Source of the DNA: a virus
Lineage: Duplodnaviria; Heunggongvirae; Uroviricota; Caudoviricetes
Length of the DNA: 29,075 bases
Strand: one strand, 5' to 3'
Virus record (IMG/VR): IMGVR_UViG_2541047746_000007
Below the pieces are notes generated by a model, which ran no database searches, was not told where the DNA came from, and saw nothing but the letters and a program-made list of their open reading frames with translations. Each line of letters begins with the position of its first letter. Position 1 is the first letter of the stretch. Positions 1 through 22,874 of the stretch are shown here, one piece after another. Made by a program: the position numbers and the translations under genes.

Positions 1-90
1 TTGCCTCCCCCCCGTTGATGGGTAAAATAGCCGCAATTTTTCGTTTTCAACAAGCGCGGCGCGATGCCGCTTACTCAAGAAGAAAGAATT

Positions 91-165
91 ATGACGTTGT
101 CTCCTTATTTGCAAGAGGTGGCGAAGCGCCGCACTTTTGCCATTATTTCTCACCCCAATAATTAA
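91..165 (+). pseudogene. prfC: 5' fragment of peptide chain release factor 3 gene, truncated at the prophage junction
   Basis: ATG at 91 translates [22 protein letters not shown], which I recognise as the RF3 N-terminus; instead of continuing into the GTPase P-loop (D-A-G-K-T) it reads N-N-stop (TAA 163-165). Recalled from memory, not searched. Confidence 0.6.
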
Positions 166-319
166 GCCTAAATTAAAGCTCTTTTACTTTTTCAAAGTCC
201 TTTCAGTTAATTGATGTTTGGTTTTATAAGTCATTTAAATACAGTTAGTTATGTGGCTTCTTTAATTGAAAATTCTTTCATGTAACTTTAAATCGATCAG
301 GTTGCTTTCATCAAAAATC

Positions 320-377
320 TGTACATATGCTTGTACATAATGTACAAAGCAGCAGAGGTGTTTTGCGATTTGTACAA
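320..377. promoter_or_regulatory. Cluster of TGTACA-core palindromes upstream of int, including the perfect 17-bp palindrome TTGTACATAATGTACAA (331-347)
   Basis: Three TGTACA motifs within 60 bp directly upstream of the int start; the same TTGTAC/GTACAA half-sites recur in the cI-cro intergenic operator at 6648-6666. Confidence 0.4.
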
Positions 378-385
378 GGTGAGTA

Positions 386-1621
386 ATGGCGCTGTCTGAT
401 GCGTGGTTGCGTTCAGTCGTTGGAAAGGAACGTGATAAGGTTTTGGTTAAATCCGATCGTGATGGTCTGTCTGTCAGAGTATCACCGAAAGGTCGCGTAG
501 TGTTCCAATATCGTTATCAATGGGCAGGGAAAGGTGAGCGCCTTGATATCGGAACTTACCCGGCAACTGGATTAAAAGAGGCCAGAGAAGAAGTTATCCG
601 TCTCCGTGGTGAACTCGAGTCAAGCCGCAATCCACGATTAGTCAAGCAGGCTGAAAAACGAAAAGCTACTGAAGCCATGACGGTAGAGTCTGTGATCCGT
701 GCCTGGTATGAAGCATATTGTGTAAAAAATAAAAAAGGTTCTGAACAGATACTCCGCTCGTTTGAGCTGCACCTGTTCTCTAAAATCGGGAATATCCCTC
801 ACGATGCAGCTACATTGCATGATTGGTTAGAAGTCCTGGAGCCTCTTAGCACCAAGACTCCAGCAATAGTAGACCGATTGCTAATTAACGCAAAGCAGGC
901 TCATGTCTGGGCGTATAAGAGAAAGCTCATTGAAACTCGCCCACTGTCGGATATCACGGGTAAAGATATGGATATCCGTAAAGGTCAGAAAAAACGGTTT
1001 CTGACACATGATGAAATTAACATCCTTTATGCTGCGATCGATGGTTCTCGAATGGTTCCTAAATACCGAGCCTTCATTAAACTATTGCTGCATTTTGGTT
1101 GCCGTAGTTCAGAGCTAATTACTGCTAGGGTGGATGATTTTGATTTCATAAATAAGGTATGGACTGTACCACCAGAACGACATAAGACTGGGGACATAAC
1201 AGGCGAACCGCTAAAGCGGCCCATTATTGAACCGGTTGAAGAGCTTATAAAATACGTTATCTCTATGAACAACGGTTCCGATATGCTTTTTACTAAGGAA
1301 GGAAGCAGGGAGCCAGTTGGTCGGACATCATTGCAGTCGCTGCCTTACAATTTAATGCAGTTCGCATGGCGACGTTTGGGGTATCAATTTCCTCATTGGT
1401 CTCTTCATGATTTGAGACGAACAGCACGAACAAACTTTTCTGATCTTACTGCTCCTCATATTGCTGAAATAATGCTTGGTCATAAACTGCCAGGTGTATG
1501 GCAAGTTTATGATAAGAGCGATTATCTAGAAGAACAGCGTAAAGCTTACTGGGCATGGTGGGAGAGGGTTGAATCGATCGTTACTTGTACTGACTTAATC
1601 TCCAACGGACAGTTTGCGTAG
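386..1621 (+). CDS. int: Tyrosine recombinase / phage integrase, P4-type with N-terminal arm-binding (DUF4102-like) domain
   Basis: 411-aa ORF. N-terminus (LSDAWLRS...GLSVRVSPKGRVVFQYRY...DIGTYP) fits the P4-integrase arm-binding pattern; C-terminus has HDLRRTARTNF and a downstream Tyr typical of tyrosine recombinases. RBS AAGGTGAG precedes the ATG. Sits next to the host junction. Confidence 0.9.
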   Translation: MALSDAWLRSVVGKERDKVLVKSDRDGLSVRVSPKGRVVFQYRYQWAGKGERLDIGTYPATGLKEAREEVIRLRGELESSRNPRLVKQAEKRKATEAMTVESVIRAWYEAYCVKNKKGSEQILRSFELHLFSKIGNIPHDAATLHDWLEVLEPLSTKTPAIVDRLLINAKQAHVWAYKRKLIETRPLSDITGKDMDIRKGQKKRFLTHDEINILYAAIDGSRMVPKYRAFIKLLLHFGCRSSELITARVDDFDFINKVWTVPPERHKTGDITGEPLKRPIIEPVEELIKYVISMNNGSDMLFTKEGSREPVGRTSLQSLPYNLMQFAWRRLGYQFPHWSLHDLRRTARTNFSDLTAPHIAEIMLGHKLPGVWQVYDKSDYLEEQRKAYWAWWERVESIVTCTDLISNGQFA

Positions 1622-1779
1622 CCAGAGCGTAATCATATCTGCCAGTCCGCTGCGGATACCTTGTGTACTGGGTTTTTAGCCAGACTACGTTAACCGGTAG
1701 CTTCAGTATTTGGGGTGTCGGCAGGAGTTTGATGGTTTATTGGGTTACTGTGGGACTAAGGATGTAGGGATGCCAATCG

Positions 1780-2913
1780 ATGAATTATGAAAAATATCAT
1801 AGCACAAACAGAAGCAAGGGTTTGCGAACCTTCTGCTACTTAATTTATTATGTGCAGGTGATTTTTAATGTGATGAAGTGTTTTATGACTCGCGGAAACT
1901 TTGATTTTATAAACTCTAACGTGGTTTTCTCAGAAGCCGATAAGTCATTGTGGATTGATCTCATTAACACCGATTGTATTTGGTATGATATGATAATTAA
2001 TCCTCCTGATGATATAAGAACAAATAAGATAATAAAGAACTATCTCAGAATTATGGAAAAATATACGAGGGAAAGCTGTGAAAAGAGATTTATTTATTTC
2101 TTAGGTTCAAGAAAAAAAGTGAGGTTTTCAACCAAGAAACAGCCTAGGTATAACCCATTCACAAAAAATATAGTATTCACTCTGTTGATTGGCAAAGAAG
2201 AGCGAAAGCTTCGGATAAAATATTCCTTTTGCACGTTTACGCAGAATGGGGTAGTGAAGGTAACTCCAAATGTTAGAGTAACTGAGAAGTTTCTCTACAT
2301 TGAATATGAAAATGGCAATTTATGTGTGATGTCAGTTCATGATTTCGTAAACGGACATTATATTGATTTAGGAATTCATACAGAAGTGCATTACGTAGGA
2401 TATACACGTCATCCGCATCGGCGCCCTGTTGATTTTATTCACCGTGGCTTATCAAAGATGCTGTATAGCGTTTCAAATGACGATAATGATTTTTTTGTTT
2501 GTTTTAGTATATTTAATCCAAGGATTATATCTCTGAATAATAAATGTAATGTGGTCTTTAATATTTCAAATTCTCTACTGGATGAAATTGATGTTGATAA
2601 TGAGGGGAGAATTATTGAAAACTGCTTAATACGTTACTTTGATCCTAAGCTTCAAGATGATGACAAGGAAAGTAAAAGGTCAGATTTAAATAAAATGTTT
2701 ATGGACCTGGTGGAAAATAAAAAAATTAAAAAAATATACGTTAATTTTCAATATGAAAGGAATAATGAGTATTTCTGCTTTTACTCTAAAGTTGTTCCGC
2801 CGAAATTTCATCATTTCTTTGTGTTGGATTTTTCTGATGGCAAGATAAATATTGATAGAGACCAGGATATGATGACTCAGATGGCATTGTGCATGGGGTA
2901 TTATAATTATTAA
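1780..2913 (+). CDS. Hypothetical protein, AT-rich orphan cargo gene (candidate defence/abortive-infection protein); start uncertain (alternative ATGs at 1873 and 1885)
   Basis: Long uninterrupted ORF in a region visibly much more AT-rich than the flanking phage DNA. Protein is rich in N/K/I/F/Y/D. I recognise no known motif (no Walker A, no clear nuclease or recombinase signature). Confidence 0.55.
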   Translation: MNYEKYHSTNRSKGLRTFCYLIYYVQVIFNVMKCFMTRGNFDFINSNVVFSEADKSLWIDLINTDCIWYDMIINPPDDIRTNKIIKNYLRIMEKYTRESCEKRFIYFLGSRKKVRFSTKKQPRYNPFTKNIVFTLLIGKEERKLRIKYSFCTFTQNGVVKVTPNVRVTEKFLYIEYENGNLCVMSVHDFVNGHYIDLGIHTEVHYVGYTRHPHRRPVDFIHRGLSKMLYSVSNDDNDFFVCFSIFNPRIISLNNKCNVVFNISNSLLDEIDVDNEGRIIENCLIRYFDPKLQDDDKESKRSDLNKMFMDLVENKKIKKIYVNFQYERNNEYFCFYSKVVPPKFHHFFVLDFSDGKINIDRDQDMMTQMALCMGYYNY

Positions 2914-3122
2914 TATTTCGCCTGATGCCAACTCAAAATCTTTTTTGTCGCATCCATTGTGGATTAATATTCAGAGGTAAGGGGTATCTGCGGAATTTAT
3001 ATTTTGCAGGATGAGCATACAATACATGATATAACATCTGTTTTTGGCACAGAGCATATAGTCAGATTATGTTTAGTTCTGTGCCATAGATGGATATTAT
3101 CTCACCTCTTGGCTAACTCTCA

Positions 3123-3317
3123 TTACTCAATAACTCCAGCAAATCTGTATATTTTGCGTGATGCCCATTTATTTGGGCAGGATTTAATATCAGGATCTGG
3201 AAAATCTGGCCTGTATTTCTGGCCTGTCCTCCTGTTTACGCTGTTCCAGCGAAGCACCGTCGATATTGAAACGCCACAGAATTCGGCGACTTGTTTTGTT
3301 GTCATTAAGTTGCTCAT
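3123..3317 (-). CDS. AlpA/excisionase-family helix-turn-helix protein (putative Xis or regulator)
   Basis: 64 aa; TTKQVAEFCGVSISTVLRW is an HTH_17/AlpA-type helix-turn-helix. RBS GGAGGGG lies 5 nt upstream of the ATG. It is the last gene of the leftward operon, adjacent to int. Confidence 0.6.
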   Translation of the reverse strand: MSNLMTTKQVAEFCGVSISTVLRWNSVNRRTGQKYRPDFPDPDIKSCPNKWASRKIYRFAGVIE

Positions 3318-3351
3318 TGCTACCCCTCCAGCGGTTGTTCAGTTGAAAGAC

Positions 3352-3888
3352 TCATGCGCATGTGCGTAACTCCGATAACTCGTTAAAGCGTTCCATAAAC
3401 ATCCCGTAGGCATGGCCTGGCGACAGTGGAATAACTTTGAACATCTCTGTGGCAGAGATGCCTTCCAGTACTGGCCAGAAAGAGCCATCCTCAAGCCCGA
3501 GATCGCGGCGTTCGGTTGCCAGCATGATGAGATCGGCATATTTCACGGGTGTACTCATAACCGGGGGTAACCCGTATTTCTCACGGATTACTGTGTCTAT
3601 TTTTTCTTCCATCCGTTTATAGTCAGGAAGAAAGCGTTTCAGTGGTGCGGGGATGTCCTGGCAATACGCTTCTGTTGCATCATGCATTAACGCTTCAAAA
3701 GCAAATTCCTGCGGTACCAGCTGGCTGCAAAGCACCGCATGTTGGGCGACGCTGTAGAAGTGTGAAAGATGACCGGCAAAGCGACAGATATTTGAAAGGG
3801 AAACCGCGATATCGTTAATATCGATGTCGTCTTTATTTATCCTGTCATAATAAAAATGCTTCCCGGAAAAAGTTTTAATAAATGACAT
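3352..3888 (-). CDS. yfdR: HD-domain phosphohydrolase, YfbR/YfdR-like 5'-deoxynucleotidase
   Basis: Motifs H..H (FAGHLSHF...AQHAV) and HD (ALMHDATEAYCQDIPAPLKRF) match the YfbR-type HD fold. Start moved to the ATG at 3888 (RBS GGAGAA), giving 178 aa, the length I recall for K-12 YfdR. Confidence 0.7.
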   Translation of the reverse strand: MSFIKTFSGKHFYYDRINKDDIDINDIAVSLSNICRFAGHLSHFYSVAQHAVLCSQLVPQEFAFEALMHDATEAYCQDIPAPLKRFLPDYKRMEEKIDTVIREKYGLPPVMSTPVKYADLIMLATERRDLGLEDGSFWPVLEGISATEMFKVIPLSPGHAYGMFMERFNELSELRTCA

Positions 3889-4015
3889 TTTGTTCTCCAC
3901 GTATATGCGTTGCACCGTGCTGAATTCTGGTAAAAGGAAGCCCTCACCATCTGGCGATTATTGGGTAAATTATGTTGACATAAATGCCCCCGCAGGGGCA
4001 TTTGCAGTAATGAAA

Positions 4016-4840
4016 TCAGGCGGTGAAAGTACCAATAAAGGTTTCTACTTTGCTGTCTTTGAATTTCTCAACAAGCAGATCACGAAATTCGTTAGCCATT
4101 TCTTCCTGCACCGCTTCCAGCTGAATAATGCGCAGAACCAGTACAGGACGATCGCCAGTGATAATGCTGAGGCGTAATTTAAACGGACGTTCTTTCAGAC
4201 CTTCAAACGGAACGCATTTAAATTCAAATGCCACTGGCATAATGTCTTTGGTCTTCGCTTCGACAGACTCCATCAGGGAGCGTTTGCCGCTGAAGTCATT
4301 ATCTTCAAAATCAGCGGTCTGGTTCGCTTCAATTGTGATTTTACGGATCGCCGCAGCCGCTTTGGTTGCCTGAATGGCGTCACCATTAGCATCAAAGCCC
4401 ACAAGGTAGTCGGCCCAGTCTTCAATCCATTCTGCCAGTGACTTCTGGGAGTTACGCTCGCCGTTAACAGACAACAGGGCAGAGAACGGTGCTGTCTTTT
4501 TCAGTTTGAGAGTGGCGGTGTTATCTGCGTGACCTGGTTCATCAATAGTACCCAGGTTAAGCACACTGACTGCTCGCATATTATCGGCATCAATAAAGCA
4601 GCGGGTGCCTTCATTTGCAAGATCTTTAGAATAACGGGTAAAGTCATCGATGCTGGCAGTGGAAAGCGCACCACGGAAACGGAAGCGATTTAAATTAAAT
4701 TTTTCCAGATCATGAATGCGGAAATTCTCAGGCAATGCCACAGCATCGGCACCAATCTTACTGATAATTTCATTAACACCCTGAGCAGAAATAAGGGCAT
4801 GGATTTGATTAATTGCGGTTGCGTCTAAGTTCTGAGACAT
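4016..4840 (-). CDS. yfdQ: YfdQ-like protein (DUF2303 family), function unknown
   Basis: 274-aa ORF with RBS GTGAGGA. Length and the P-Q-R gene order match the KpLE1/CPS-53 yfdP-yfdQ-yfdR arrangement as I recall it; not searched. Confidence 0.6.
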
Positions 4841-4905
4841 AATAAGTCCTCACTATATAAAGATATTCAGTGATGAGATAAATAATCAGTTTATTAAAAA
4901 CGATA

Positions 4906-5268
4906 TTAACGACCTGCTGCGCGGAGTTTTCCGTCAGGTTCACCGGCAAGAGTCAGTAATTGTCCCTGGTCTTCCTGCAGAATAGTCAGGCGACCACCGC
5001 GATTGACATACATCGGCGTTTCGGTGGTGTCTTCTTCGGAAATTTTCCCGCGGTTAGTCGGGCGAACATATGAGAGTTTGTGTTTGATTTTCACACGGTT
5101 CTCATCAAATGGTTCGATTTCCAGGTTGAGTGAGACCTTACCTTTGGTTTTCGTGTTCATCACACCTGAAGCGACTTCACTGAGAACTGCGCCGATTTTG
5201 GTTTCAAATACGCCGCCGTCCAGCTCCCCGATAAATGCCCGCACATCAGTACTGCGTTCGCTAGCCAT
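4906..5268 (-). CDS. yfdP: YfdP-like small protein, function unknown
   Basis: The track ORF (to 5454) is probably over-extended. The internal ATG at 5268 has a strong RBS (GAGGAG) and gives about 120 aa, beginning MASERSTDVRAFIGELDGG. Confidence 0.55.
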   Translation of the reverse strand: MASERSTDVRAFIGELDGGVFETKIGAVLSEVASGVMNTKTKGKVSLNLEIEPFDENRVKIKHKLSYVRPTNRGKISEEDTTETPMYVNRGGRLTILQEDQGQLLTLAGEPDGKLRAAGR

Positions 5269-5316
5269 TTTGCTGCTCCTCATCATATCGACCCTGCAAG
5301 GTCGGTTGGTTTCTCC

Positions 5317-5405
5317 ACAAAACAGAGAAGAACACCTGCGGTGGCAGCCGCCCGGATGGATTGGGTTATGAGCCCGTCGTCCGGTGATGCTCTTCTCTGT
5401 TTTGT
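5317..5405 (-). promoter_or_regulatory. Large hairpin in the early-left leader RNA (15-bp perfect stem, 59-nt loop), preceded by a boxA-like CGCTCTTTTTACA
   Basis: ACAAAACAGAGAAGA (5317-5331) is the exact reverse complement of TCTTCTCTGTTTTGT (5391-5405). On the minus strand GCTCTTTTTACAAA sits immediately 5' of the stem. Confidence 0.3.
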
Positions 5406-5413
5406 AAAAAGAG

Positions 5414-5450
5414 CGGTACCAGCCGGAAGCAAGTGTACAAACTGGTACCG
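5414..5450 (-). terminator. Hairpin plus U-run in the leader (candidate tL-type terminator or attenuator)
   Basis: 9-bp stem CGGTACCAG/CTGGTACCG with a 19-nt loop; on the minus strand it is followed by GCUCUUUUU. The loop contains another TTTGTACA motif. Confidence 0.35.
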
Positions 5451-5889
5451 CCAAAGCAGTGGCTGTTGTGGTGACCGGTGCTGATCTCCGGCTTGCGGTT
5501 ATTTCAGACTCTCACGGGTGTTTAATTGCCCCGCCGAACAGCTCTTTTCCGCAATAGCTGCAATGTCTTTCGCGCATCAGCCTGCGCATTCACCACAACG
5601 CTGAGAGCACTTAGCCAGTTACGGCACCACACTTTGTCGCGGTTCCATAAATGCCCTCATCGTTGCACCCTGGTCTCTTCCCAGGTGTCAAACCGAACCG
5701 CCACGCAGGTTAGGCGTCTTATCAGCATCATCATTGACTTGCACATTCCGGCTACCTGGTTTGTTTGTCCGAGCAAGGAGTGGATTGTCCCCTTTAACGT
5801 CCCCAGACCGCTAACGACGCATGTGCCATACGCCGTGTTACAACCAAATTTTGTTTGAATCTTGCCTGCCTCATGTTTCTTTTGGATAC

Positions 5890-5917
5890 ATTATGTATCT
5901 CATGGGTACATTGTCAA
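5890..5917 (-). promoter_or_regulatory. Candidate PL early-left promoter (TTGACA-16 nt-CATAAT), overlapped by palindrome GATACATTATGTATC (5885-5899)
   Basis: Minus-strand -35 TTGACA (5917-5912) and -10 CATAAT (5895-5890) with a 16-nt spacer; a 15-bp palindrome overlaps the -10, consistent with an OL operator. Confidence 0.45.
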
Positions 5918-5920
5918 GTA

Positions 5921-5943
5921 TAAAAAAACCTGCCGAAGCAGGT
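5921..5943 (-). terminator. Rho-independent terminator after cI
   Basis: Minus-strand hairpin ACCUGC-UUCG-GCAGGU followed by a U7 run, 14 nt beyond the cI stop. Confidence 0.65.
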
Positions 5944-5956
5944 TCATAAATATTGA

Positions 5957-6631
5957 TTAGGCCTTTATTGTGTATCTTCTTGGTTTTCCCGAGAAAATCA
6001 CTGTACCAATTATAGAGCAATTACCGTTAATCTTAATGTAAGGCTCAGGCCAGTTTGGGTTTAATGCTTTGAGATAACGCTGTGTTCCATCTTCTATCAA
6101 TCGCTTGAAGGTGGTTTCGCCTGTATCGTGCATCAATGCAATAACGTCGTCACCGTGGCAGGCAGGGACTTCGGGATCAACAAAAATCATGTCTCCAGGG
6201 CGGTACTCATCAATCATTGAATCACCAATCACCCGCAAGATATAAGTCATTTCGCCACAGGGTACAGGGCAGGGATACGTTTCTGCTGTGCTCAAATCAA
6301 CCTCAGAATAGCCAACTTCTTTCCATGCTCCGGCCTGTACCCATGATATGACAGGGACTAACGTTATTTGTTTGTTAGTGATTGAAACATCAGGTTTTTT
6401 TGTGATGTTCGTTGTCTGGTGTTCTTGATCAAGCCATCCGACAGGCAGGTCGAAACATTTTTCGATGTGCCGTGCCATGCTGTCACCGATATTTTTAGTA
6501 GCGCCATCCCCCATAAACCTGCTGGTTTGGGTTGGCTCGCGATCAATCATGGTGGCAAAGGATGAATTTCCGCCAACACCATCTCTCAGTTTTCTGGCGT
6601 TAGACCGCCGGATGTCATGGATTGTTTTCAT
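5957..6631 (-). CDS. cI: CI-type repressor (HTH_XRE N-terminal domain + S24/LexA-like peptidase C-terminal domain)
   Basis: 224 aa; N-terminal HTH region, C-terminal GDSM serine motif with a downstream lysine typical of autocleaving S24 repressors. Divergent from cro across an operator region. Confidence 0.85.
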   Translation of the reverse strand: MKTIHDIRRSNARKLRDGVGGNSSFATMIDREPTQTSRFMGDGATKNIGDSMARHIEKCFDLPVGWLDQEHQTTNITKKPDVSITNKQITLVPVISWVQAGAWKEVGYSEVDLSTAETYPCPVPCGEMTYILRVIGDSMIDEYRPGDMIFVDPEVPACHGDDVIALMHDTGETTFKRLIEDGTQRYLKALNPNWPEPYIKINGNCSIIGTVIFSGKPRRYTIKA

Positions 6632-6647
6632 AACGAAATTAAAACCT

Positions 6648-6666
6648 TTGTACCGATAAGGTACAA
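6648..6666. promoter_or_regulatory. OR operator palindrome TTGTACCGATAAGGTACAA; a second palindrome ATATGTA-N9-TACATAT (6696-6718) spans the cro RBS
   Basis: Perfect 7-bp inverted half-sites in the 90-bp cI-cro intergenic region; candidate PR -35 TTGAAG (6672-6677) and -10 TAATAT (6694-6699). Confidence 0.5.
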
Positions 6667-6721
6667 GTATCTTGAAGGTTCATTTCAATCATGTAATATG
6701 TATACCGGAGGTACATATTGT

Positions 6722-6922
6722 ATGAAAGCGTATTGGGACTCTTTAACCAAAGAACAGCAGGGCGAGTTGGCCGGAAAAGTTGGCTCAACACCTGGCTACT
6801 TACGGCTGGTTTTCAATGGTTATAAAAAAGCCAGTTTTGTGCTGGCGAAAAAACTTGAGCAATGCACGTCAGGTGCAATTACGAAATCTGACTTAAGACC
6901 GGATATCTATCCGAAAGATTAA
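6722..6922 (+). CDS. cro: Cro/YdaS-family HTH repressor
   Basis: 66 aa from the ATG at 6722 (RBS GGAGG 6706-6710). The GSTPGYLRLVFNGYKKAS...KSDLRPDIYP pattern resembles YdaS/Cro-type proteins. The track ORF start at 6617 is over-extended into the operator region. Confidence 0.8.
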   Translation: MKAYWDSLTKEQQGELAGKVGSTPGYLRLVFNGYKKASFVLAKKLEQCTSGAITKSDLRPDIYPKD

Positions 6923-6953
6923 CAGAACACCTTCAATTTTTAACCACAGAACG

Positions 6954-7517
6954 ATGAGGCTAACCGTGGGTAAGTATCACTGGAAAGTAGAAAAACAGCC
7001 TGAGTGGTACGTGAAAGCTGTCAGAAAAACTATCGCAGCGTTGCCGGGTGGTTACGCTGAAGCAGCTGACTGGCTGGATGTAACAGAGAACGCATTATTT
7101 AACCGCCTTCGTGCCGATGGCGATCAGATTTTCCCGCTGGGATGGGCAATGGTTTTACAGCGCGCGGCTGGCACTCACTACATTGCGGATGCTGTCGCAC
7201 AGTCTGCTGGTGGGGTGTTCGTATCGCTTCCTGAAATTGAGGAAGTAGAGAACGCCGATATAAACCAGCGCCTGCTGGAAGTCATCGAACAGATCGGGAA
7301 TTACTCAAAGCAGATTCGTTCGGCAATCGAAGATGGGGTCGTGGAGCCACACGAGCAGACAGCAATTAATGATGAGTTGTATCTGTCAATTTCGAAGCTC
7401 CAAGAGCATGCAGCACTGGTCTACAAAATCTTTTGCGCTCCAGAAAAGAGTGACGCCCGCGAGTGTGCAGCTCCGGGCGTCGTGGCGTTTTGTGTCTGTG
7501 GAGAAACTAACGCATGA
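6954..7517 (+). CDS. CII-like / YdaT-like early regulatory protein (assignment uncertain)
   Basis: 187-aa ORF immediately after cro; its stop overlaps the next start (ATGA). Family call is by position and vague recollection only. Alternative GTG start at 6966 has a better RBS. Confidence 0.5.
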   Translation: MRLTVGKYHWKVEKQPEWYVKAVRKTIAALPGGYAEAADWLDVTENALFNRLRADGDQIFPLGWAMVLQRAAGTHYIADAVAQSAGGVFVSLPEIEEVENADINQRLLEVIEQIGNYSKQIRSAIEDGVVEPHEQTAINDELYLSISKLQEHAALVYKIFCAPEKSDARECAAPGVVAFCVCGETNA

Positions 7518-15918: not shown

Positions 15919-15947
15919 TTGCATTTTTCAAAAAATATGGATAAAAT
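15919..15947 (+). promoter_or_regulatory. Candidate late promoter PR' (TTGCAT-17 nt-TAAAAT), probable qut region
   Basis: Promoter-like hexamers 32 nt downstream of the Q stop, followed about 50 nt later by an intrinsic terminator, as in lambda PR'-tR'. Confidence 0.45.
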
Positions 15948-15992
15948 TCTTTCAACGATGGGCTTTATATACCCGACGTTAAGAAAAAGTAG

Positions 15993-16017
15993 AAAACCCG
16001 CTGATGAGCGGGTTTTT
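15993..16017 (+). terminator. Rho-independent terminator (tR'-like)
   Basis: AAAA-CCCGCT-GATG-AGCGGG-TTTTT: 6-bp GC-rich stem, 4-nt loop, U-run. Confidence 0.7.
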
Positions 16018-16302
16018 GTGCTTTAAATAGGGTAATAGAGATGTTGAATCTCATTCCGGGATTCATGTTTGTTTACTTATTATTTATCGGGTGACTTTGC
16101 CTGATGTTTAAAATGTTTTCTTCCAGTGCTATGTCCCTAGATACAATGAGTCTGCATATTACATTATTAGCAGAGCTATTACGGTCAAAGTACAGCATAA
16201 GCTTTTAAAGCCAATCAACCAGTCATCAAGACAGACGGGGTTATTCATGAAAACTCTCCATGTTTGATTCGATGGGGCCTGAAATTAAAGCTTTAATATA
16301 GC

Positions 16303-16515
16303 TCATGAAAGGTAAACATTGGCAGCTGAAGGGCCACGCAGACCATTTATCCGGCAAAATTCCACGCGTAATCCGGTGGTAATTTCTTCTGCATCGCGGA
16401 GATTGAGCGCTGAAACATGAAGCTGGACATCGATACGACCATCGGATGGGGTGATAAGACCCTTGCCGCTTTTGCCGTCAAAGGTTTTGACAATTCCTGT
16501 CATTTTACGGGACAA
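16303..16515 (-). CDS. cspF: Cold-shock-domain protein, CspF/CspH-like
   Basis: 70 aa beginning [26 protein letters not shown] and ending [16 protein letters not shown] start with RBS AAGGAA. Divergent partner of the cspB-like gene. Confidence 0.75.
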
Positions 16516-16815
16516 AAAAATTCCTTAATACTGATAACTGGGCGCACTATACACACGTTCCTGAAGAAAGCTATAGTTTTTTGATGGGGTTGAAGATGGC
16601 TGGATGTCTAAAATAAACATTGCTTCATATGTTCAACTATGCGTTAATGATTGCGTCGGTTTGAAGAACAGACGATATACGAAGTAGTTTACTAAAGCAG
16701 TTCTCATTTCAGGTGTTATTCACTTATTCCTTCTTTGAGTCTCTCCAATTAAGTACGAAGTCGTTTCTGTTATACAAGCCATTTATGCCGAAAGGCTCAA
16801 GTTAAGGAATGTAGA

Positions 16816-17031
16816 ATGTCAAATAAAATGACTGGTTTAGTAAAATGGTTTAACGCTGATAAAGGTTTTGGCTTTATTTCTCCTGTTGATGGTAGTAAAG
16901 ATGTGTTTGTGCATTTTTCTGCGATTCAGAATGATAATTTTCGAACCTTATTTGAAGGTCAAAAGGTTACCTTCTCTGTAGAGAGTGGTGCTAAAGGTCC
17001 TGCAGCAGCAAATGTCATAATTACTGATTAA
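16816..17031 (+). CDS. cspB: Cold-shock protein, CspB-like
   Basis: 71 aa; [38 protein letters not shown] carries the RNP1/RNP2 motifs of CspA-family proteins. RBS AAGGAA. Confidence 0.8.
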
Positions 17032-17312
17032 AATTCATAGTTTGTCTGTATACGATAACGAAGAAGGCTGATGCCTGAGTGGAGATACAGACAGAGTGGT
17101 GAATATTGGATCTCTTTAATAAATAGTAAGGAGGTCCAATACATGAAACAATGGCCAGCATATTTGGCAATAACTTAATCAGGAAAAGTATGCTAACCAT
17201 TGTGGTGAAGTGCAGGTTTGCTGCATGAATAGTTTTACAGCAGAAGCTAACTGCTGGCATAGCAAAACAAAGTGCGTAAGTGGATGACTCCCACAAAAAG
17301 TACCACAATATT

Positions 17313-17337
17313 AAACCCGCTCAGGCGGGTTTTTTAT
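17313..17337 (+). terminator. Rho-independent terminator, possibly bidirectional
   Basis: AAA-CCCGC-TCAG-GCGGG-TTTTTT downstream of cspB, in the gap before the convergent minus-strand zinc-ribbon gene. Confidence 0.75.
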
Positions 17338-17394
17338 TATCTGCTTTAAATATGTTATTAAAATATAAAAAATACTTGTTACGAATAAAATCAA

Positions 17395-17565
17395 TCAAGC
17401 TACAGCTTTAAGATTTGTCTGGAATACTTTGTTGCAATGAGGGCAGATCAAAAGGGCACCTTTTTGTACTCTTGAAAAACTGTGTTCTGACTCTTGGGTG
17501 CAGTTTGGGCAGGAACATTTAACGAGATAATTACGGCGTGATTTTGAGTCTTTACGTTCTGACAT
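17395..17565 (-). CDS. Small zinc-ribbon protein (Cys4, Com-like architecture), function unknown
   Basis: ATG at 17565 with RBS AGGAAAA; 56 aa with CSCPNC...(18 residues)...CPHC. The track ORF (to 17616) is over-extended. Confidence 0.5.
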   Translation of the reverse strand: MSERKDSKSRRNYLVKCSCPNCTQESEHSFSRVQKGALLICPHCNKVFQTNLKAVA

Positions 17566-17783
17566 AGGCTTTTCCTGTATAAATGGCCGTATACAGTACA
17601 CTAAATATGAAAACATATCTCGTATTATTATTTAATATATGATTTTCTTTTAAAATAATTACCCACATTTTTAATGTGTCTGTTTTTTAGCGCCGTTGAG
17701 AACAACGTTTGCTATAAAAACTAACCCATAGACTCCGATCTTTTCAAACATATTGCACCATCTGTGTACATCGGGGTGAGGAT

Positions 17784-17999
17784 ATGAAATCAATGGATAA
17801 GTTAACAACAGGTATCGCCTATGGCACATCGGCTGGTAATGCTGGTTTCTGGGCATTGCAGTTACTCGATAAAGTAACTCCGTCACAGTGGGCTGCAATC
17901 GGTGTGCTGGGTAGTCTGGTTTTTGGCCTGCTGACGTATCTGACAAACCTTTATTTCAAGATTAAAGAAGACAGGCGTAAGGTTGCGAGAAGAGAGTAA
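17784..17999 (+). CDS. Class II holin (EssQ/EssD / phage-21 S-like), dual-start motif
   Basis: 71 aa; [26 protein letters not shown] with two predicted transmembrane segments and a charged C-terminal tail. M1-K-S-M4 dual start as in holin/antiholin pairs. RBS GGGGTGAGGA. Confidence 0.85.
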
Positions 18000-18003
18000 T
18001 CCA

Positions 18004-18555
18004 ATGACACAAGACTATGAACTGGTTGTGAAAGGAGTCCGCAATTTTGAGAATAAAGTGGCGGTAACTGTAGCCTTACGGGACAAAAAACGCTTTGACG
18101 GTGAAATTTTTGACCTGGACATCTCGCTGGACCGTGTTGAAGGTGCCGCGCTGGAGTTTTATGAGGCAGCAGCCAGAATGAGAATCAGACAGGTATTCCT
18201 GGATGTTGCTGCCGGGTTATGTGTAGGGGATGAGCAGTCGCCGGAAAAGCGCCCCATAATTTTAGAGGCGCAGAATGTGTGGATAACCTACAAAGGAAAG
18301 CTACCGGGAAGAATTACTGGTTCTCTGAAGACGCCACCGACGGCATTGCGGTCAGAAAAAGATGATATTGAATCGCCCATTGAAAAACTGGAGGGCAGCG
18401 TCGCTGATCTGAATAAAAAATTGTCGGTGCTGATCCCTTCTGAAGATGAAAAAAAACGCCGCGATGAGCAGTTTGCGGCGTTTTACGATTATTGCATTGA
18501 AGTTACTCGCAGGAATTTTGTGAAGATTTTTGAGGAGGGTAAATCTCTTCAGTAA
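18004..18555 (+). CDS. Hypothetical protein in the lysis cassette
   Basis: ATG at 18004 immediately after the holin stop; 183 aa, acidic and coiled-coil-like. Lies between holin and endolysin, where Qin carries ydfR as I recall. Confidence 0.5.
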   Translation: MTQDYELVVKGVRNFENKVAVTVALRDKKRFDGEIFDLDISLDRVEGAALEFYEAAARMRIRQVFLDVAAGLCVGDEQSPEKRPIILEAQNVWITYKGKLPGRITGSLKTPPTALRSEKDDIESPIEKLEGSVADLNKKLSVLIPSEDEKKRRDEQFAAFYDYCIEVTRRNFVKIFEEGKSLQ

Positions 18556-18763
18556 GCTTAATGGCGGACGCTGCAATTAATTCAGGAAGGTCCGCAAGGT
18601 CATCTGTCAGTGGATATGATGAAAAATCGGCGGCAGTTCTGTTAAGAAGCGCTTTAACTAATTCCTTTTCCTTCTCCGGCAACAAGTTGATTAGAGCTAC
18701 GACTGCTTGCCTGAGTGCGATTAAATCAGCAAAAGTTTGTTTTGGTAGATTTGTGTAATCCAT
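18503..18763 (-). CDS. Hypothetical acidic protein encoded antisense within the lysis cassette
   Basis: 86 aa from the ATG at 18763 with RBS GAGGTG. Helical-looking protein with atypical codon usage (GC3 about 40%). Its 3' end overlaps the upstream plus-strand gene by 53 nt. Confidence 0.35.
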   Translation of the reverse strand: MDYTNLPKQTFADLIALRQAVVALINLLPEKEKELVKALLNRTAADFSSYPLTDDLADLPELIAASAIKLTEEIYPPQKSSQNSCE

Positions 18764-18876
18764 AGTCACCTCTGTGTTTATCAGATTGACATCCTCCTCC
18801 CGCCAGTGCCCATCACTGGTGAGGTAAGATTTAACATATCCGGGGATTTGAAGCCGATAAATCCTGATAAATATCC

Positions 18877-19904
<1,028 letters not shown>

Positions 19905-20267
19905 ATTAATATTAAATCGGATTATTTTTAGCGCTGAATGTGAAATTTAAATAAAAAGGACTCTTCCATGAGTCAAAATCCTTGAAATCTTAAGGGTAAG
20001 ATAAAAGGTCATTAGACAGAATGACACGTTTTATTAATAAATAAAGCTATTGTTTCATTCGTGTGTTTTTCTTTACAAAAGTAATCCTTGCTATGGTTGG
20101 TTAATCATGCGTTAATGGTGTTCTGGTTTGTTACAAAATTATCTGAAGCAGTCATTGTTATAATTTTATTATTTGTACCTCTTGAGATTTCCTTGTTGGT
20201 TTTTCTCTCTGATATTTTTTTTCGGACCATTCTGCCCAAGGGCTAACTTCTTCAAAAGGTAATAATG

Positions 20268-20480
20268 ATGTCTAACAAAATGACTGGTTTAGTGAAATGG
20301 TTTAACCCTGAAAAAGGTTTTGGTTTCATCACGCCGAAAGATGGTAGCAAAGATGTGTTTGTGCATTTCTCAGCTATTCAGAGCAACGATTTCAAAACGT
20401 TAACTGAGAATCAGGAAGTCGAATTTGGTATTGAGAACGGACCTAAAGGCCCTGCAGCTGTTCATGTAGTGGCACTTTGA
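20268..20480 (+). CDS. cspI: Cold-shock protein CspI-like
   Basis: 70 aa; [42 protein letters not shown]...[13 protein letters not shown]. Long AT-rich 5' leader upstream, typical of csp genes. Confidence 0.85.
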
Positions 20481-20685
20481 GGTAGAAAATATTACAAACC
20501 ATATTCACTTTAGATGCCCGTGTTGCCATGGTTCTCAGTATAGAACATCATCTTTTGATGTTTCTGACAGAAATCCTTTCGGGGCAAAATGTATCTTTTG
20601 TAAATCAATGATGATTACATTTGATAATATTTCACAATACTTAAATGTTAGCCATCTGTCGTTAGATTTAAGAAAGTGAAAATGA

Positions 20686-20707
20686 AGGCTCCTTCGGGAG
20701 CTTTTTT
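20686..20707 (+). terminator. Rho-independent terminator downstream of cspI
   Basis: GGCTCC-TTCG-GGAGC followed by TTTTTT. Confidence 0.6.
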
Positions 20708-20751
20708 GCTTAGTGTCTAGTCGATGGATACTCACATATTACGGTAACATT

Positions 20752-20982
20752 ATGAAAAAAATAATAGTTTTTTTTAACTCTGAACCAGCAATGGTAGTGC
20801 CAGTGATGACCGGAGTTAACACCATCATGCGTGAATATCCAAATGGCGAAACAACACACCTCACTGTAATGGCTGCAGGGTTTCCATCTCTGACCGGAGA
20901 TCATAAAGTCATTTATGTAGCAGCGGATCGACATGTAACTTCAGAAGAAATTCTGGAAGCAGCAATGAGACTCTTGAATTGA
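20752..20982 (+). CDS. Hypothetical small protein (moron)
   Basis: 76 aa from the ATG at 20752 (MKKIIVFFNSEPAMVVPVMTG...); weak RBS. Sits between cspI and gnsB, where Qin carries ynfN as I recall. Confidence 0.45.
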   Translation: MKKIIVFFNSEPAMVVPVMTGVNTIMREYPNGETTHLTVMAAGFPSLTGDHKVIYVAADRHVTSEEILEAAMRLLN

Positions 20983-21154
20983 TTTGATTCTAATGCATTG
21001 ATAATAAATGATAATCATCTTTATCTGTTTGTGTGAAATTTAGACCGTCGTATGTTGATTATTGCGATGTTTCATCTTATCTTTTATACGTTTGCTCCAT
21101 ATAATTGACACTACTGTGTACCAGGACAGTCATAACAGACTAAAAGAGGAAATG

Positions 21155-21328
21155 ATGAACATTGAAGAGTTAAAAACAAAAACAGAAGCAGATATTTCTG
21201 AATATATAACAAAAAAAATCATTGAGCTTAAGAAAAAGACCGGGAAAGAAGTTACCAGTATCCAGTTTACTGCACGGGAAAAAATGACTGGTCTTGAAAG
21301 CTATGATATCAAGATTGATTTAATCTAG
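21155..21328 (+). CDS. gnsB: GnsA/GnsB-family protein
   Basis: 57 aa; MNIEELKTKTEADISEYITKKIIELKKKTGKEVTSIQFTAREKMTGLESYDIKIDLI matches the GnsA/GnsB sequence as I recall it. RBS AAGAGGA. Confidence 0.75.
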   Translation: MNIEELKTKTEADISEYITKKIIELKKKTGKEVTSIQFTAREKMTGLESYDIKIDLI

Positions 21329-21623
21329 CATGTTTATAGTATTAGCATCAATTTCTCATCAGATGCTATTCAACAATACAAATTACCCATAAACCTCGTT
21401 TTTACGGGGTTTTGTTATATTTAAACATTACCGAATAGATATAAATCTCGATTGTCAATGGTATTGGTTGTGTGACAATACCTAGTCTTTCCGGTATGCC
21501 TGAAGAGAATACAAACGACAGATTATGTAAGGGAAACGCGCTGAAACTTTCACTCTTTCATGCTGAGTGATTTGACGTTATATTTTTAGCCGCAAGTGAA
21601 GAGCAAACGAATGGAGCGACAAA

Positions 21624-21830
21624 ATGCATAAAGATCAATACACTGATGCCCCCTCCCAGGAGCAGGTTCGTGTAAAAACTATGCTTAATAGCACCATTTC
21701 GATGGGTTACCCGGATGTTGTAATTGCATGTATAGAACATCAAGTATCTCTGGAAGCATTCAGGGCAATTGAGGCCGCGTTAGTAAAGCACGATAAGAAT
21801 ACGAAGGATTATTCCCTGGTGGTTGACTGA
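21624..21830 (+). CDS. Hypothetical small protein
   Basis: 68 aa with RBS GGAG 8 nt upstream of the ATG. No recognised motif. Confidence 0.45.
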
Positions 21831-22195
21831 TCACCATAACTGCTAACCATTCTGACCATTTCACAAGTGACAGAGTCAATATCGTATTCTGTCACTGTAA
21901 GGCTAATACAGTACTGCAATTCAACTACAGCAATGCCTCGTATTTAGGTGAATTTACAATATCGTCCAGTTCGGATGCCGGCTGCATTTCTGAAGATAAG
22001 GCATTTCGGTTCGCGTATTTTCCCCTCATGCTCGTCAGTCCTGCGCGTAGTAAGAAACAGGACACTCACACTAATTTGTGTGGGCATGCTGTGATGTCCT
22101 TCTGAATTATCCCCATGCCATTATGTAACGCTCTGTTTCAGATGCTCGTCACGGTTGTCAGGCTGTCGGGTCCTCCCAGTGGGGGTCCCTGCCAC

Positions 22196-22213
22196 GGGGC
22201 GGGAGCGTCGCGG
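22196..22213. other. Candidate cos site (cosN-like GGGGCGGGAGCGTCGCGG)
   Basis: Closely resembles the lambda left-end sequence GGGCGGCGACCTCGCGGG; lies about 170 bp upstream of the small terminase gene with A/T-rich flanks. Confidence 0.4.
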
Positions 22214-22382
22214 AAAAAGGCTAGTTTTTGCATTTTTATCGGCCACCATCATCTTTGCATCTTATTGATTATTAATGGTTGTTTGTTTTTTGTATGTCGA
22301 ATTGAGTGTTTTTTGTTCGACATCGAACGCGTTTTCTTAAAGTTGTTCGCACGATGCATGTTTAAAGCTCTCCGGAGGAAAT

Positions 22383-22874
22383 ATGGATCATGAGTTGAAA
22401 AACCTGGTGCTGAATATTAATCAACTGGCGGCTTTATCTGGTCTGCACCGCCAGACTGTCGTGGCAAGACTGAAAAACATTCGTCCCGCTGGTGGACATG
22501 ACAAACTCAAGCTATACCGGTTGACCGATATTCTGACTGAATTTATGGGGTTACCACCGCCGGTTGCTGAGGGCGAAATGGATCCACATGAACGCAAAGC
22601 CTGGTATCAGTCTGAACGTGAGCGTCTTAAGTTCGAACAGGAAACGGCACAACTCATTCCGGCCAGTGATGTCAGACGGGAGTTTGCCATCTGGGCAAAA
22701 GCGGTCGTGCAGGTGCTGGAGACATTACCGGATATTCTGGAACGTGACTGCGGCCTGCAGCCTGCCGCTGTGAGCCGTGTTCAGTCCATTATTGATGATC
22801 TGCGCGATCAGATAGCCCTGCGGGTGACCGAAGCAGGTGCGGATGATGAGGAGGAATTACAGCAGGAGGAGTAA
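22383..22874 (+). CDS. Terminase small subunit (Nu1-like, N-terminal HTH)
   Basis: 163 aa; N-terminal LNINQLAALSGLHRQTVVARLKN helix-turn-helix, acidic C-terminus. Stop overlaps the large-terminase start (TAATG). RBS GGAGG. Confidence 0.75.
   Translation: MDHELKNLVLNINQLAALSGLHRQTVVARLKNIRPAGGHDKLKLYRLTDILTEFMGLPPPVAEGEMDPHERKAWYQSERERLKFEQETAQLIPASDVRREFAIWAKAVVQVLETLPDILERDCGLQPAAVSRVQSIIDDLRDQIALRVTEAGADDEEELQQEE

Follow-up and report, generated by a model that had tools for sequence, protein, structure and literature searches.

A phage yfdP-yfdQ gene pair with an accessory HD-domain gene and a structured leader RNA in the early-left operon of a lambdoid prophage

Three consecutive genes lie on the minus strand of a 29,075-nucleotide stretch of Caudoviricetes DNA (IMG/VR record IMGVR_UViG_2541047746_000007), referred to here as the window. 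The gene yfdP (positions 4906-5268), preceded by a GAGGAG ribosome-binding site at 5276-5281, encodes a 120-aa protein of the YfdP family (PHROG 204, E = 5e-50), yfdQ (4016-4840) encodes a 274-aa protein of the DUF2303 family (PF10065; PHROG 210, E = 1e-119), and yfdR (3352-3888) encodes a 178-aa HD-domain phosphohydrolase (PHROG 318, E = 1e-109) with a metal site composed of H50, H69, D70 and D119. The excisionase gene xis (3123-3317, minus strand; PHROG 1553, E = 1e-34) is next in the same operon. Note that the reading frame of yfdR extends back to a GTG at 3915; the start used for K-12 and by PGAP is the ATG at 3888, with its Shine-Dalgarno sequence GGAGA. The 127-nt spacer between yfdQ and yfdR, taken whole, has no unusual structure (z = -0.85). 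Inside it is a 9-bp GC-rich hairpin, AAAUGCCCC-UGCG-GGGGCAUUU (3982-4003, minus strand), which could act as a weak terminator or as an RNA-stability element.

The original prediction held that these genes resemble the yfdP-yfdQ-yfdR block of the E. coli K-12 element KpLE1 (CPS-53). Identities to the CPS-53 proteins (97.5% for YfdP, 99.3% for YfdQ and 94.4% for YfdR) and the PHROG matches bear this out, and at the level of sequence the relation goes beyond resemblance and is one of orthology. Membership in DUF2303 was judged by a full-length Pfam match above the gathering score in a single-domain protein of about 270 aa. YfdQ aligns to model positions 2-269 of 269 with 311.7 bits (cut-off 26.6; E = 4.9e-93) and is a full-length member, so that the check by HMM search proposed earlier confirmed the assignment. 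YfdP belongs to its family by the match to PHROG 204 and by its place directly upstream of the DUF2303 gene; in precomputed annotation, all listed YfdP homologues carry PF27127.

Transcription of the early-left genes presumably begins at a pL-like sigma-70 promoter (TTGACA-16-CATAAT, 5917-5890, minus strand; 11 of 12 positions agree with the consensus), situated a short way downstream of the terminator (5926-5945) of a cI-like gene (5957-6631, Peptidase_S24). No ORF of at least 40 aa intervenes between this promoter and yfdP, and the promoter-proximal genes of the early-left operon are yfdP, yfdQ and yfdR. With a strong sigma-70-like promoter past the cI-like terminator, and with xis directly following yfdR (yfdS and yfdT are absent from the window), the early-left reading of the locus holds. 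An O-like initiator gene (8537-9394) is followed by a PerC/YfdN-like gene. The main ORFs of the 29-kb window, from int to terminase, were scanned against PHROGs and revealed no exo, bet, gam, erf, recT, sak or abc gene, as had been anticipated for this operon. The scan turned up only RusA and a DUF968/HNH protein, each encoded in the nin region.

The window contains 15 Chi sites when 0.79 are expected by shuffling, and the excess persists (P = 0.002) even against the Chi density of E. coli. Chi density is one site per 1.94 kb here and one per 1.86 kb in phage LLS, the namesake of the "LLS functional type" of lambdoid phages described by Zheng et al. 2025 (PMC12315714). Phages of this type have no Rec module, no N, a replication gene of the O type only, many Chi sites and the same three genes, and the combination of missing Rec functions and high Chi density is viewed as dependence on host RecBCD (PMC12315714). 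Judged on 29 kb of prophage, our sequence has no Rec module, a Chi density well above that of the host, no N homologue and only an O-type gene, features that place it with the LLS-type lambdoids. The 15 Chi sites, and the RecBCD strategy they suggest, explain the missing Rec functions better than does a substitution by the three genes; the likeliest source of recombination is host RecBCD, working from the many Chi sites of the phage.

Comparison with the nearest relatives sets the block in its mosaic context. K-12 CPS-53 has the same three genes in the same order, with the same spacing, ribosome-binding sites and start codons, but yfdS and yfdT follow yfdR where the window has xis. The window keeps an intact leader RNA (described below), the pL-like promoter and the repressor, whereas K-12 has lost all three. 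Integration sites also differ, adjoining yjjG in the closest relatives of the window and argW in K-12. Phages ST64B (sb37-sb36-sb35), phiNP and LLS (gp39-gp38-gp37) carry the block directly after the repressor gene, together with the same leader RNA element, and share the absence of a Rec module and of N, the O-type gene only and the high Chi density. However, their proteins are only 57-75% identical to those of the window, and their immunity regions, integrases and late genes belong to other mosaics. The window also contains an IS element, so that this particular prophage copy may not be fully functional.

Directly upstream of yfdP, the minus strand encodes a structured leader RNA (5287-5452) that is supported by folding energy (z = -7.2) and by covariation. 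Its first 5' part is a GC-rich hairpin with a U-run (5452-5404). This part is followed by a long stem, P1 (5410-5313), which encloses a three-way junction and an invariant 22-mer, GACGGGCUCAUAACCCAAUCCA (5378-5357), that mimics the anticodon arm of tRNA-fMet, and then by a small 3' hairpin (5305-5290). The invariant loop of this three-way-junction RNA of about 100 nt copies 14 nt of the anticodon arm of the initiator tRNA. In Klebsiella and Pantoea phages the same RNA core occurs in the late leader, at the end of a tRNA array, which suggests a reused role. No Rfam family matched positions 2900-7000 of the window, even at E <= 1. Sequence homology to the put elements of HK022 was rejected, the 22-nt core being absent from HK022 even when three mismatches are allowed; any analogy to put would be one of function. 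The leader may represent a new cis-acting phage RNA. In N-less lambdoids it could serve as a put-like processive antiterminator; other options are a decoy or a tRNA-like signal that directs processing by RNase P or RNase III. The leader seems more novel than the three genes themselves, and an RNA resembling tRNA-fMet could bear on the control of early-left transcription in N-less lambdoids.

The taxonomic distribution of the three genes revealed that they do not behave as one unit. A YfdP homologue is encoded directly upstream of YfdQ in all nine diverse phages compared and in all 81 E. coli-type loci; YfdR accompanies the pair in 77 of these 81 loci but in only two of the nine diverse phages. 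The conserved unit is an obligate yfdP-yfdQ pair to which yfdR is accessory, and the notion of a conserved trio does not stand. Since YfdR is missing from most of the non-enteric phages that carry the pair, the function of the pair must be independent of YfdR. The pair spans temperate enteric lambdoids and virulent phages of Xanthomonas, Vibrio, Pseudomonas and Acinetobacter, and its neighbours across phages are genes for SSB, exonuclease, Erf, RecT or Rad52. ArgO145 has gam-like, RecT, exonuclease and SSB genes in front of the pair, in Xanthomonas phage CP2 the pair sits with Erf, exonuclease and SSB, and in Vibrio phage 1.232.O it co-occurs with a Rad52-like protein. The complete Rec modules beside the pair in ArgO145 and CP2 speak against the claim that the three genes stand in place of recombination genes, a view shared by Zheng et al. 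2025 (PMC12315714), who also decided against it.

The YfdQ family comprises 1815 clusters at 50% identity, with single-domain members of about 270 aa, and is essentially restricted to phages (only 24 of 72,556 plasmids carry it). This count, with 21 of the 24 plasmids non-mobilizable, led us to discard the idea of a gene from the leading region of conjugative plasmids. No domain fusion of YfdQ was found in the top 150 of the 1815 family representatives, and the few apparent fusions of PF10065 with PF27127 are too short to be real. YfdP is neither a fragment nor a paralogue of YfdQ (HHalign probability of 0.1%). Fold searches with YfdP and YfdQ recovered no recognizable fold relative and no annealase-like fold, and neither protein showed homology or fold likeness to Red-beta/RecT, Erf, Rad52/Sak, Sak4, Exo/RecE, Gam/Abc2 or SSB. 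Given that genes for SSB, exonucleases and annealases adjoin the pair in unrelated virulent phages, the targets of the pair are probably DNA intermediates of replication or recombination, or the proteins that bind these intermediates, and not nucleotides.

A structure for this family has been deposited as PDB 9o7m ("YfdQ Protein"), an entry with 36 chains. The number of chains in the PDB sequence file makes it appear that YfdQ forms large oligomers. The entry and the window YfdQ belong to the same family and have the same length of 274 aa (E = 5.9e-45, and 2e-58 with a profile), but they are only about 38% identical. Its source is a virulent Xanthomonas phage similar to CP2 and MET23-P3, which has Erf, exonuclease and SSB and differs from our prophage in having no YfdR. 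YfdQ of phage CP2 is 93.5% identical to the 9o7m sequence, and a YfdP homologue precedes its gene. Profile searches of the PDB returned 9o7m as the sole match, and two candidate partners from CP2, whose phage is closely related to that of the 9o7m sequence, namely the YfdP homologue and ORF36, are both absent from the PDB. The entry was released after 8 April 2026 and lies outside the fold library used in our fold searches. Our literature search found no paper for it; a cryo-EM preprint on PhiXacm4-11, considered as its origin, deposits other entries and leaves YfdQ unmentioned. At intermediates of replication or recombination the pair may build a large oligomer, and YfdR may be an addition made in enteric phages that links this oligomer to DnaA. 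That both the pair, as an obligate machine devoid of fold relatives, and the leader, as a new cis-acting RNA, are genuine novelties is a joint proposition that we regard as possible but rather doubtful.

The YfbR-type H..HD motifs expected in the third gene are present. When YfdR of the window is aligned with K-12 YfdR, Sb35 of ST64B, a homologue from a Pseudomonas phage and YfbR of E. coli, residues H50, H69, D70 and D119 are invariant, as are E73 and D78. The H...HD...D site that defines metal-dependent phosphohydrolases of the HD domain is thus complete in YfdR. YfbR reportedly uses a catalytic Glu and a substrate Asp located after the HD motif (HDxxE....D), and its N-terminal Arg-Trp loop is said to read deoxyribose. 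YfdR has the former arrangement (E73, D78) and lacks the latter, the YfbR segment LKLINRWPL aligning to a gap in all YfdR-type sequences. The Pfam model of YfbR-like HD proteins (PF12917) is matched by residues 50-113 alone and barely above threshold (26.1 bits; cut-off 25.9), and the NCBIfam model of YfbR equivalogs (PRK03826) scores 21.3 bits, far under its cut-off of 122. By these profiles, YfdR appears to be a relative of YfbR but not an equivalog. The two proteins share the HD fold family, the H..HD..D site and the HDxxE...D..P.P.K motif; they differ in overall sequence (25% identity to YfbR, PDB 2paq) and in the N-terminal substrate loop, which is not kept in YfdR. DnaA binding, reported for K-12 YfdR, is not a known activity of YfbR (PMC4776307). 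RefSeq names K-12 yfdR a 5'-deoxynucleotidase. As relayed in PMC4776307 (citing Zimmerman 2008), the nucleotide affinity of YfdR is much lower than that of YfbR, and its function is called elusive. Such functional data as exist for it indicate binding to DnaA and inhibition of initiation at oriC.

We favor with modest confidence, at a probability of roughly 40% for the full explanation, a role of the block in early interference with host replication. K-12 YfdR, 94% identical to the protein of the window, belongs to the HD-domain phosphohydrolases and shows weak activity as a dNMPase; the purified protein binds domain I of DnaA via Phe46 and competes with DiaA and DnaB (PMC4776307). The same study shows that multicopy yfdQ and yfdR with either yfdS or yfdT inhibit initiation at oriC in vivo, that extracts enriched in YfdQRST inhibit initiation in vitro, and that yfdQ and yfdR are both required for this inhibition while yfdP is dispensable (PMC4776307). 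Upon induction or infection, transcription from pL would express the genes as an early host-takeover module. YfdR, aided by YfdQ, would damp DnaA-dependent initiation at oriC, and this would free DnaB/DnaC and precursors for a phage that has an origin-binding protein alone and no helicase loader. YfdP-YfdQ would constitute a separate, obligately paired and phage-specific module, and not a replacement recombinase. Noguchi and Katayama (PMC4776307) drew a functional analogy to lambda P, which is likewise made early by a phage, binds DnaA and inhibits initiation at oriC. The likeness is in function only. Lambda P is unrelated in sequence, is not an HD protein, binds domain III of DnaA and is itself a helicase loader, whereas YfdR binds domain I and the phage studied here has no loader gene. 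If the link between YfdR and DnaA operates during induction, it would explain how loader-less lambdoids compete with oriC for DnaB.

Several observations count against interference with replication. In K-12, yfdQ and yfdR alone are insufficient and need yfdS or yfdT, both missing from the window. The K-12 effects were seen on overexpression alone, replication was unaffected by deleting yfdQRST, and an artefact is a possibility that the authors themselves raise (PMC4776307). Pull-downs detected no complex of YfdQ with YfdR or with DnaA (PMC4776307). Finally, a terminator-like hairpin precedes yfdP, and most non-enteric phages with the pair lack YfdR.

Four other explanations must be weighed. 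YfdR could be mainly an enzyme that, early in infection, removes phosphate from dNMPs or from nucleotides that are modified or toxic, with YfdP and YfdQ as unrelated passengers, so that precursors are rebalanced or nucleotide-directed host defences blunted. The full conservation of metal and catalytic residues from YfbR to the phage homologues of YfdR, at identities of 25-38%, argues that the chemistry is under selection, and the RefSeq name, the description of PHROG 318 ("deoxyribonucleoside 5' monophosphate phosphatase") and the closest solved relative of YfdR, the HD protein Atu1052 (E = 1e-13), point the same way. Nevertheless, the low nucleotide affinities relayed above, the equivalog score of 21 bits, the missing counterpart of the YfbR "LINRWPL" segment and the lack of a PADLOC match or known defence-system link for the block weigh against it, as does the waste that dNMP hydrolysis would make of precursors needed by a replicating phage; we consider this explanation unlikely. 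Far less probable is that YfdP and YfdQ make up an unrecognized system for ssDNA annealing or mediation that replaces exo/bet/gam in Rec-less lambdoids. The pair does occupy the usual early-left Rec position where Rec genes are absent, genes for SSB and exonuclease lie next to it in virulent phages, YfdQ appears oligomeric as annealases are (by the chain count of 9o7m), beta-beta-beta-alpha units are predicted in an AF2 model, and a K-12 yfdQ deletion is weakly MMS-sensitive, as relayed in PMC4776307 (citing Rooney 2009). However, the pair coexists with full Rec modules in ArgO145 and CP2 and with the Rad52-like protein in Vibrio phage 1.232.O, Chi enrichment offers another source of recombination, and such a role was judged unlikely in PMC12315714.

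Alternatively, a YfdP-YfdQ oligomer could counter or trigger defence, either by sequestering or mimicking a target of a host immune system or by shielding ssDNA or the ends of phage DNA against nucleases of the host. Both genes are confined to phages, lie close to the promoter and are probably expressed early, temperate and virulent phages of many Gammaproteobacteria conserve the pair, and the lack of a fold relative and the recent determination of a phage YfdQ structure also fit. The absence of any PADLOC relation and of a defence link for the pair in the literature searched makes this improbable, and so does the high conservation of YfdQ, whose invariant polar residues E46, R56, H104, E140, D141, R166 and R223 resemble an enzyme or a fixed interface more than an arms-race protein. 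More remote still, low expression from the prophage could aid the stress tolerance of the host (H2O2, acid, MMS, hydroxyurea) rather than lytic growth. The defective remnant CPS-53 still keeps yfdPQRST, and 58% of complete E. coli genomes contain the block. Sensitivity to H2O2 rises when yfdQ or yfdS is deleted, and sensitivity to MMS when yfdQ is deleted, according to PMC4776307 (citing Wang 2010 and Rooney 2009), and multicopy yfdQRS or yfdQRT increases hydroxyurea resistance (PMC4776307). Yet a repressor-controlled pL-like promoter and an upstream terminator-like hairpin should keep the genes silent in the lysogen, and a benefit to the lysogen leaves unexplained the same pair in strictly virulent Xanthomonas and Vibrio phages.

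The block is already known: its genes have names in K-12 and RefSeq, PGAP annotates them across thousands of genomes, and papers of 2016 and 2025 discuss them. The finding of the three genes in itself adds little, and its value is that of a pointer to a widespread block. The question is now sharper, given that the conserved unit is the yfdP-yfdQ pair, that this pair keeps the company of SSB and nuclease genes in virulent phages, and that a solved oligomeric structure stands unpublished. The yfdP-yfdQ-yfdR block, found in 3151 of the 5426 complete E. coli genomes and also in many Stx phages, ranks among the most frequent early gene blocks that prophages of E. coli carry.

The window spans the left-hand portion of a lambdoid prophage, in which an integrase gene (386-1621, + strand) and a low-GC open reading frame (1780-2913, +) are followed by the excisionase gene xis (3123-3317, -) and by yfdR, yfdQ and yfdP (3352-5268, -; 178, 274 and 120 aa). 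An ORF-poor leader of about 620 nt separates yfdP from the gene of a cI-like S24 repressor (5957-6631, -). Beyond it lie cro-like and cII-like genes, an O-like replication initiator gene (8537-9394, +; PHROG 270) and, directly after it, a PerC/YfdN-like activator gene (9397-9885). Nin-region genes including rusA follow the replication module, then Q, lysis genes and terminase. The window ORFs include no P, DnaC or DnaB-type gene in the replication module, which appears to consist of a single O-like initiator.

The original prediction of a YfdP/YfdQ/YfdR-like trio at 3352-5268 was borne out, the proteins being 97.5%, 99.3% and 94.4% identical, respectively, to those of the K-12 cryptic prophage CPS-53. 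The yfdP start (5268) lies 7 nt downstream of GAGGAG. The yfdR frame is open back to a GTG at 3915, and K-12 and phage PhiR63_1 both use the ATG at 3888, which has GGAGA in front of it. DNA of 3000-5600 was matched in 3151 of 5426 complete E. coli genomes, where PGAP names the genes yfdP, yfdQ and yfdR ("5'-deoxynucleotidase"), and in 71 phage records, SfV, mEp460, cdtI and many Stx phages among them. The block is therefore previously known and annotated.

The trio is a YfdP-YfdQ pair with an accessory YfdR. Among nine diverse YfdQ loci (ST64B, ArgO145, four Vibrio phages, Pseudomonas LPPA56, Xanthomonas CP2 and one Acinetobacter phage), a YfdP-like ORF, detected with an HMM built from YfdP homologues (E 6e-69 to 1.5e-13), lies directly upstream of the YfdQ (DUF2303) gene in all nine, and a YfdR homologue occurs in two only, ST64B and LPPA56. 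The E. coli-type loci (80 viral contigs and the window) have YfdP adjacent in 81/81, with a constant gap of 66 nt, and YfdR next in 77/81. YfdS and YfdT are found in 60 and 42 of the 80 related viral contigs; both genes are absent from the window, where xis stands directly after yfdR (3123-3352). DUF2303 comprises 1815 clusters at 50% identity, of which the best 150 all consist of one domain, measure about 265-290 aa and offer no informative fusion. Since only 24 of 72,556 plasmids, mostly non-mobilizable, carry it, DUF2303 is essentially a phage gene. Ten polar residues of YfdQ (E46, R56, T61, Y70, H104, Q132, E140, D141, R166 and R223) are at least 90% conserved among members with a median identity of 39%, a pattern that would suit a catalytic site, a phosphate-binding site or a fixed interface. 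A mutual relatedness of YfdP and YfdQ was rejected, their sequences being unrelated on comparison. YfdP has a conserved C-terminal tail, QEDQGQL[LF]TL (residues ~98-106, window ~4951-4977, -), modelled with low confidence. The tail loosely resembles the beta-clamp-binding consensus (QL[SD]LF or QLxLxL), and is a candidate only.

The block had also been thought to replace recombination genes, and this part of the interpretation failed. In ArgO145, a gam-like gene and genes for a RecT-like protein, an exonuclease and SSB immediately precede yfdP-yfdQ. In CP2 (2639-5468), the pair is followed by a 511-aa protein with a weak DUF1351 match and then by Erf, exonuclease, endonuclease and SSB genes, and Vibrio phage 1.232.O has a Rad52-like gene close to it. 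Because the pair stands beside full recombination modules in ArgO145 and CP2, yfdPQ is no substitute for them. No annealase-like fold was detected for YfdP or YfdQ, and a cryptic recombinase is the least probable of the functions considered here. Zheng et al. 2025 likewise consider such a role unlikely for gp37-39 of phage LLS (PMC12315714), which belongs to a lambdoid class with no Rec module and high Chi. The absence of a Rec module is better explained by the Chi richness of the window. Chi octamers (GCTGGTGG) occur at 15 sites within 7206-23492, 11 of them on the + strand, and at none in 1-7205. This count in 29 kb compares with 0.79 expected from shuffling and 6.3 at the density of E. coli K-12 (P = 0.002), whereas HK022, which has Erf and Abc2, carries 2 in 40.7 kb. 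The density of one per 1.94 kb is close to that of LLS (one per 1.86 kb), and the window shares with LLS an O-type initiator without helicase or loader gene, the lack of an N homologue and the yfdPQR block. No minus-strand ORF longer than 39 aa was found between pL and the conserved yfdP leader. Taken together, high Chi, lack of a Rec module and the LLS traits indicate that the prophage fits this published lambdoid class, which depends on RecBCD.

Which function the block performs is a matter of competing explanations. The original prediction read YfdR as an HD-domain 5'-deoxynucleotidase that could reshape nucleotide pools. When YfdR of the window is aligned with its K-12 counterpart, with Sb35 of ST64B, with a homologue from a Pseudomonas phage and with YfbR of E. 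coli, residues H50, H69, D70 and D119, together with E73, D78 and K84, are invariant, so no metal-binding residue is lost and the HD motif stands. YfdR is a member of PHROG 318 (E 1.5e-109). It passes the Pfam YfbR-like model marginally (26.1 bits, cut-off 25.9) and fails the NCBIfam YfbR equivalog (21 bits, cut-off 122); its closest solved relative is the HD protein Atu1052 (2gz4, E 1.3e-13), with YfbR at only E 0.4. The N-terminal "LINRWPL" of YfbR has no counterpart in YfdR in the same alignment, which fits the nucleotide affinities far below those of YfbR given for YfdR where PMC4776307 cites Zimmerman et al. 2008. Remodelling of nucleotide pools by the enzyme seems unlikely, an anti-defence role of the block is more doubtful still, and a stress benefit to the lysogen is improbable.

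We tentatively favour (probability about 0.4) an early host-takeover role of the block, centred on replication. YfdR would bind DnaA domain I and, with YfdQ, damp initiation at oriC, which would help a phage that relies on borrowed DnaB and DnaC. Because SSB and nuclease genes constantly accompany the pair, YfdP-YfdQ may form an independent oligomeric module that acts on intermediates of replication or recombination. Functional data are limited to K-12, where purified YfdR binds DnaA, with Phe46 in domain I of DnaA being important, and where multicopy yfdQ and yfdR together with yfdS or yfdT inhibit oriC initiation, yfdQR alone being insufficient and yfdP dispensable; deletion gave no replication phenotype (PMC4776307). 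Against the takeover role, however, the K-12 phenotype required yfdS or yfdT, neither of which is in the window, the effect was seen on overexpression only, and most lineages have the pair without YfdR.

A solved structure for a YfdQ homologue is available in PDB entry 9o7m ("YfdQ Protein", 274 aa, 36 chains; E 5.9e-45, with a profile 1.8e-58), for which no publication was found in the literature searched. This recent deposit comes from a virulent Xanthomonas phage resembling CP2/MET23-P3, and its sequence shares 94-99% identity with YfdQ homologues from the CP2/MET23-P3 group of virulent podophages of Xanthomonas and Xylella. As YfdQ chains begin at label C, chains A and B must be other components; comparison with neighbouring phage proteins rejected these as their identity. 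The structure prediction originally suggested for YfdP and YfdQ yielded AlphaFold2 models (pLDDT 78.4 and 78.3) but no meaningful fold match, Foldseek returning nothing at E <= 0.001 from a PDB library older than 9o7m.

Upstream of yfdP, 83/85 yfdP loci conserve the terminal ~180 nt of the leader, the remainder of which is mosaic. Segment 5269-5460 (-) folds at -87.8 kcal/mol (z = -7.2); the leader upstream of it is unremarkable (z = -1.9). The structured RNA (5287-5452, -; core 22-mer 5357-5378) comprises, from 5' to 3', a GC-rich hairpin with a U-run, a P1 stem of 20-25 bp closing a three-way junction, a P2 arm and a variable P3 hairpin. The hairpin and U-run are terminator-like. The apical 22 nt of P2 (GACGGGCUCAUAACCCAAUCCA) are invariant in the element, and a run of 14 nt in this invariant loop (CGGGCUCAUAACCC) matches the anticodon stem-loop of the E. 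coli initiator tRNA (metZ) exactly; ARAGORN found no tRNA and Rfam gave no match in the leader RNA. In a 21-sequence alignment, 95.8% of cells pair, versus 38-49% with partners slid, and compensatory changes occur at 9 pairs versus at most 2 in slid controls, the structure having been derived from these same, related sequences. Covariation supports the fold, and G.U wobble pairs place it on the yfdP sense strand. Over all fetched loci the core occurs 204 times (90 unique), with a YfdP homologue within 1.5 kb downstream in 164. E. coli-type prophages, ST64B, phiNP and LLS have it between repressor and yfdP; Klebsiella and Pantoea lambdoids carry it downstream of Q, in the late leader. A tRNA array directly precedes it in the Klebsiella phages, where P1 is an acceptor-like stem of 6-7 bp, with ACCA after it in two of the three. 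HK022 has no copy. The leader RNA might be a put-like antiterminator, of the kind that LLS must have according to a speculation of Zheng et al. (PMC12315714); it might otherwise serve as a processing site for RNase III or RNase P, or as a decoy of tRNA-fMet.

The ORF at 1780-2913 (377 aa, 32% GC), between int and xis, matches PHROG 7779 of unknown function (E 1e-246) and nothing in Pfam, NCBIfam or PADLOC. It resembles a moron or cargo gene and recurs in PhiR63_1; strain BMH-17-0027 has another gene at that place. Plus-strand ORFs at 3004-3369 and 5526-5858, annotated as hypothetical proteins in PhiR63_1, are antisense to xis and the leader, respectively, and are probably not genes; the latter has no PHROG match. 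Between rusA and a KilA-N-type regulator gene, which are adjacent in related prophages, 11412-13169 (+) encodes a 172-aa ORF (PHROG 4809) and a 406-aa transposase ORF (PHROG 5749). This segment has the appearance of an insertion sequence, and its presence may mean that the prophage copy is partly disabled. Finally, the 127-nt yfdQ-yfdR spacer, similar in length in K-12 and ST64B, contains a perfect 9-bp GC-rich hairpin with a UGCG loop and no clear U-tract (3982-4003, -), which could set the YfdQ:YfdR expression ratio.
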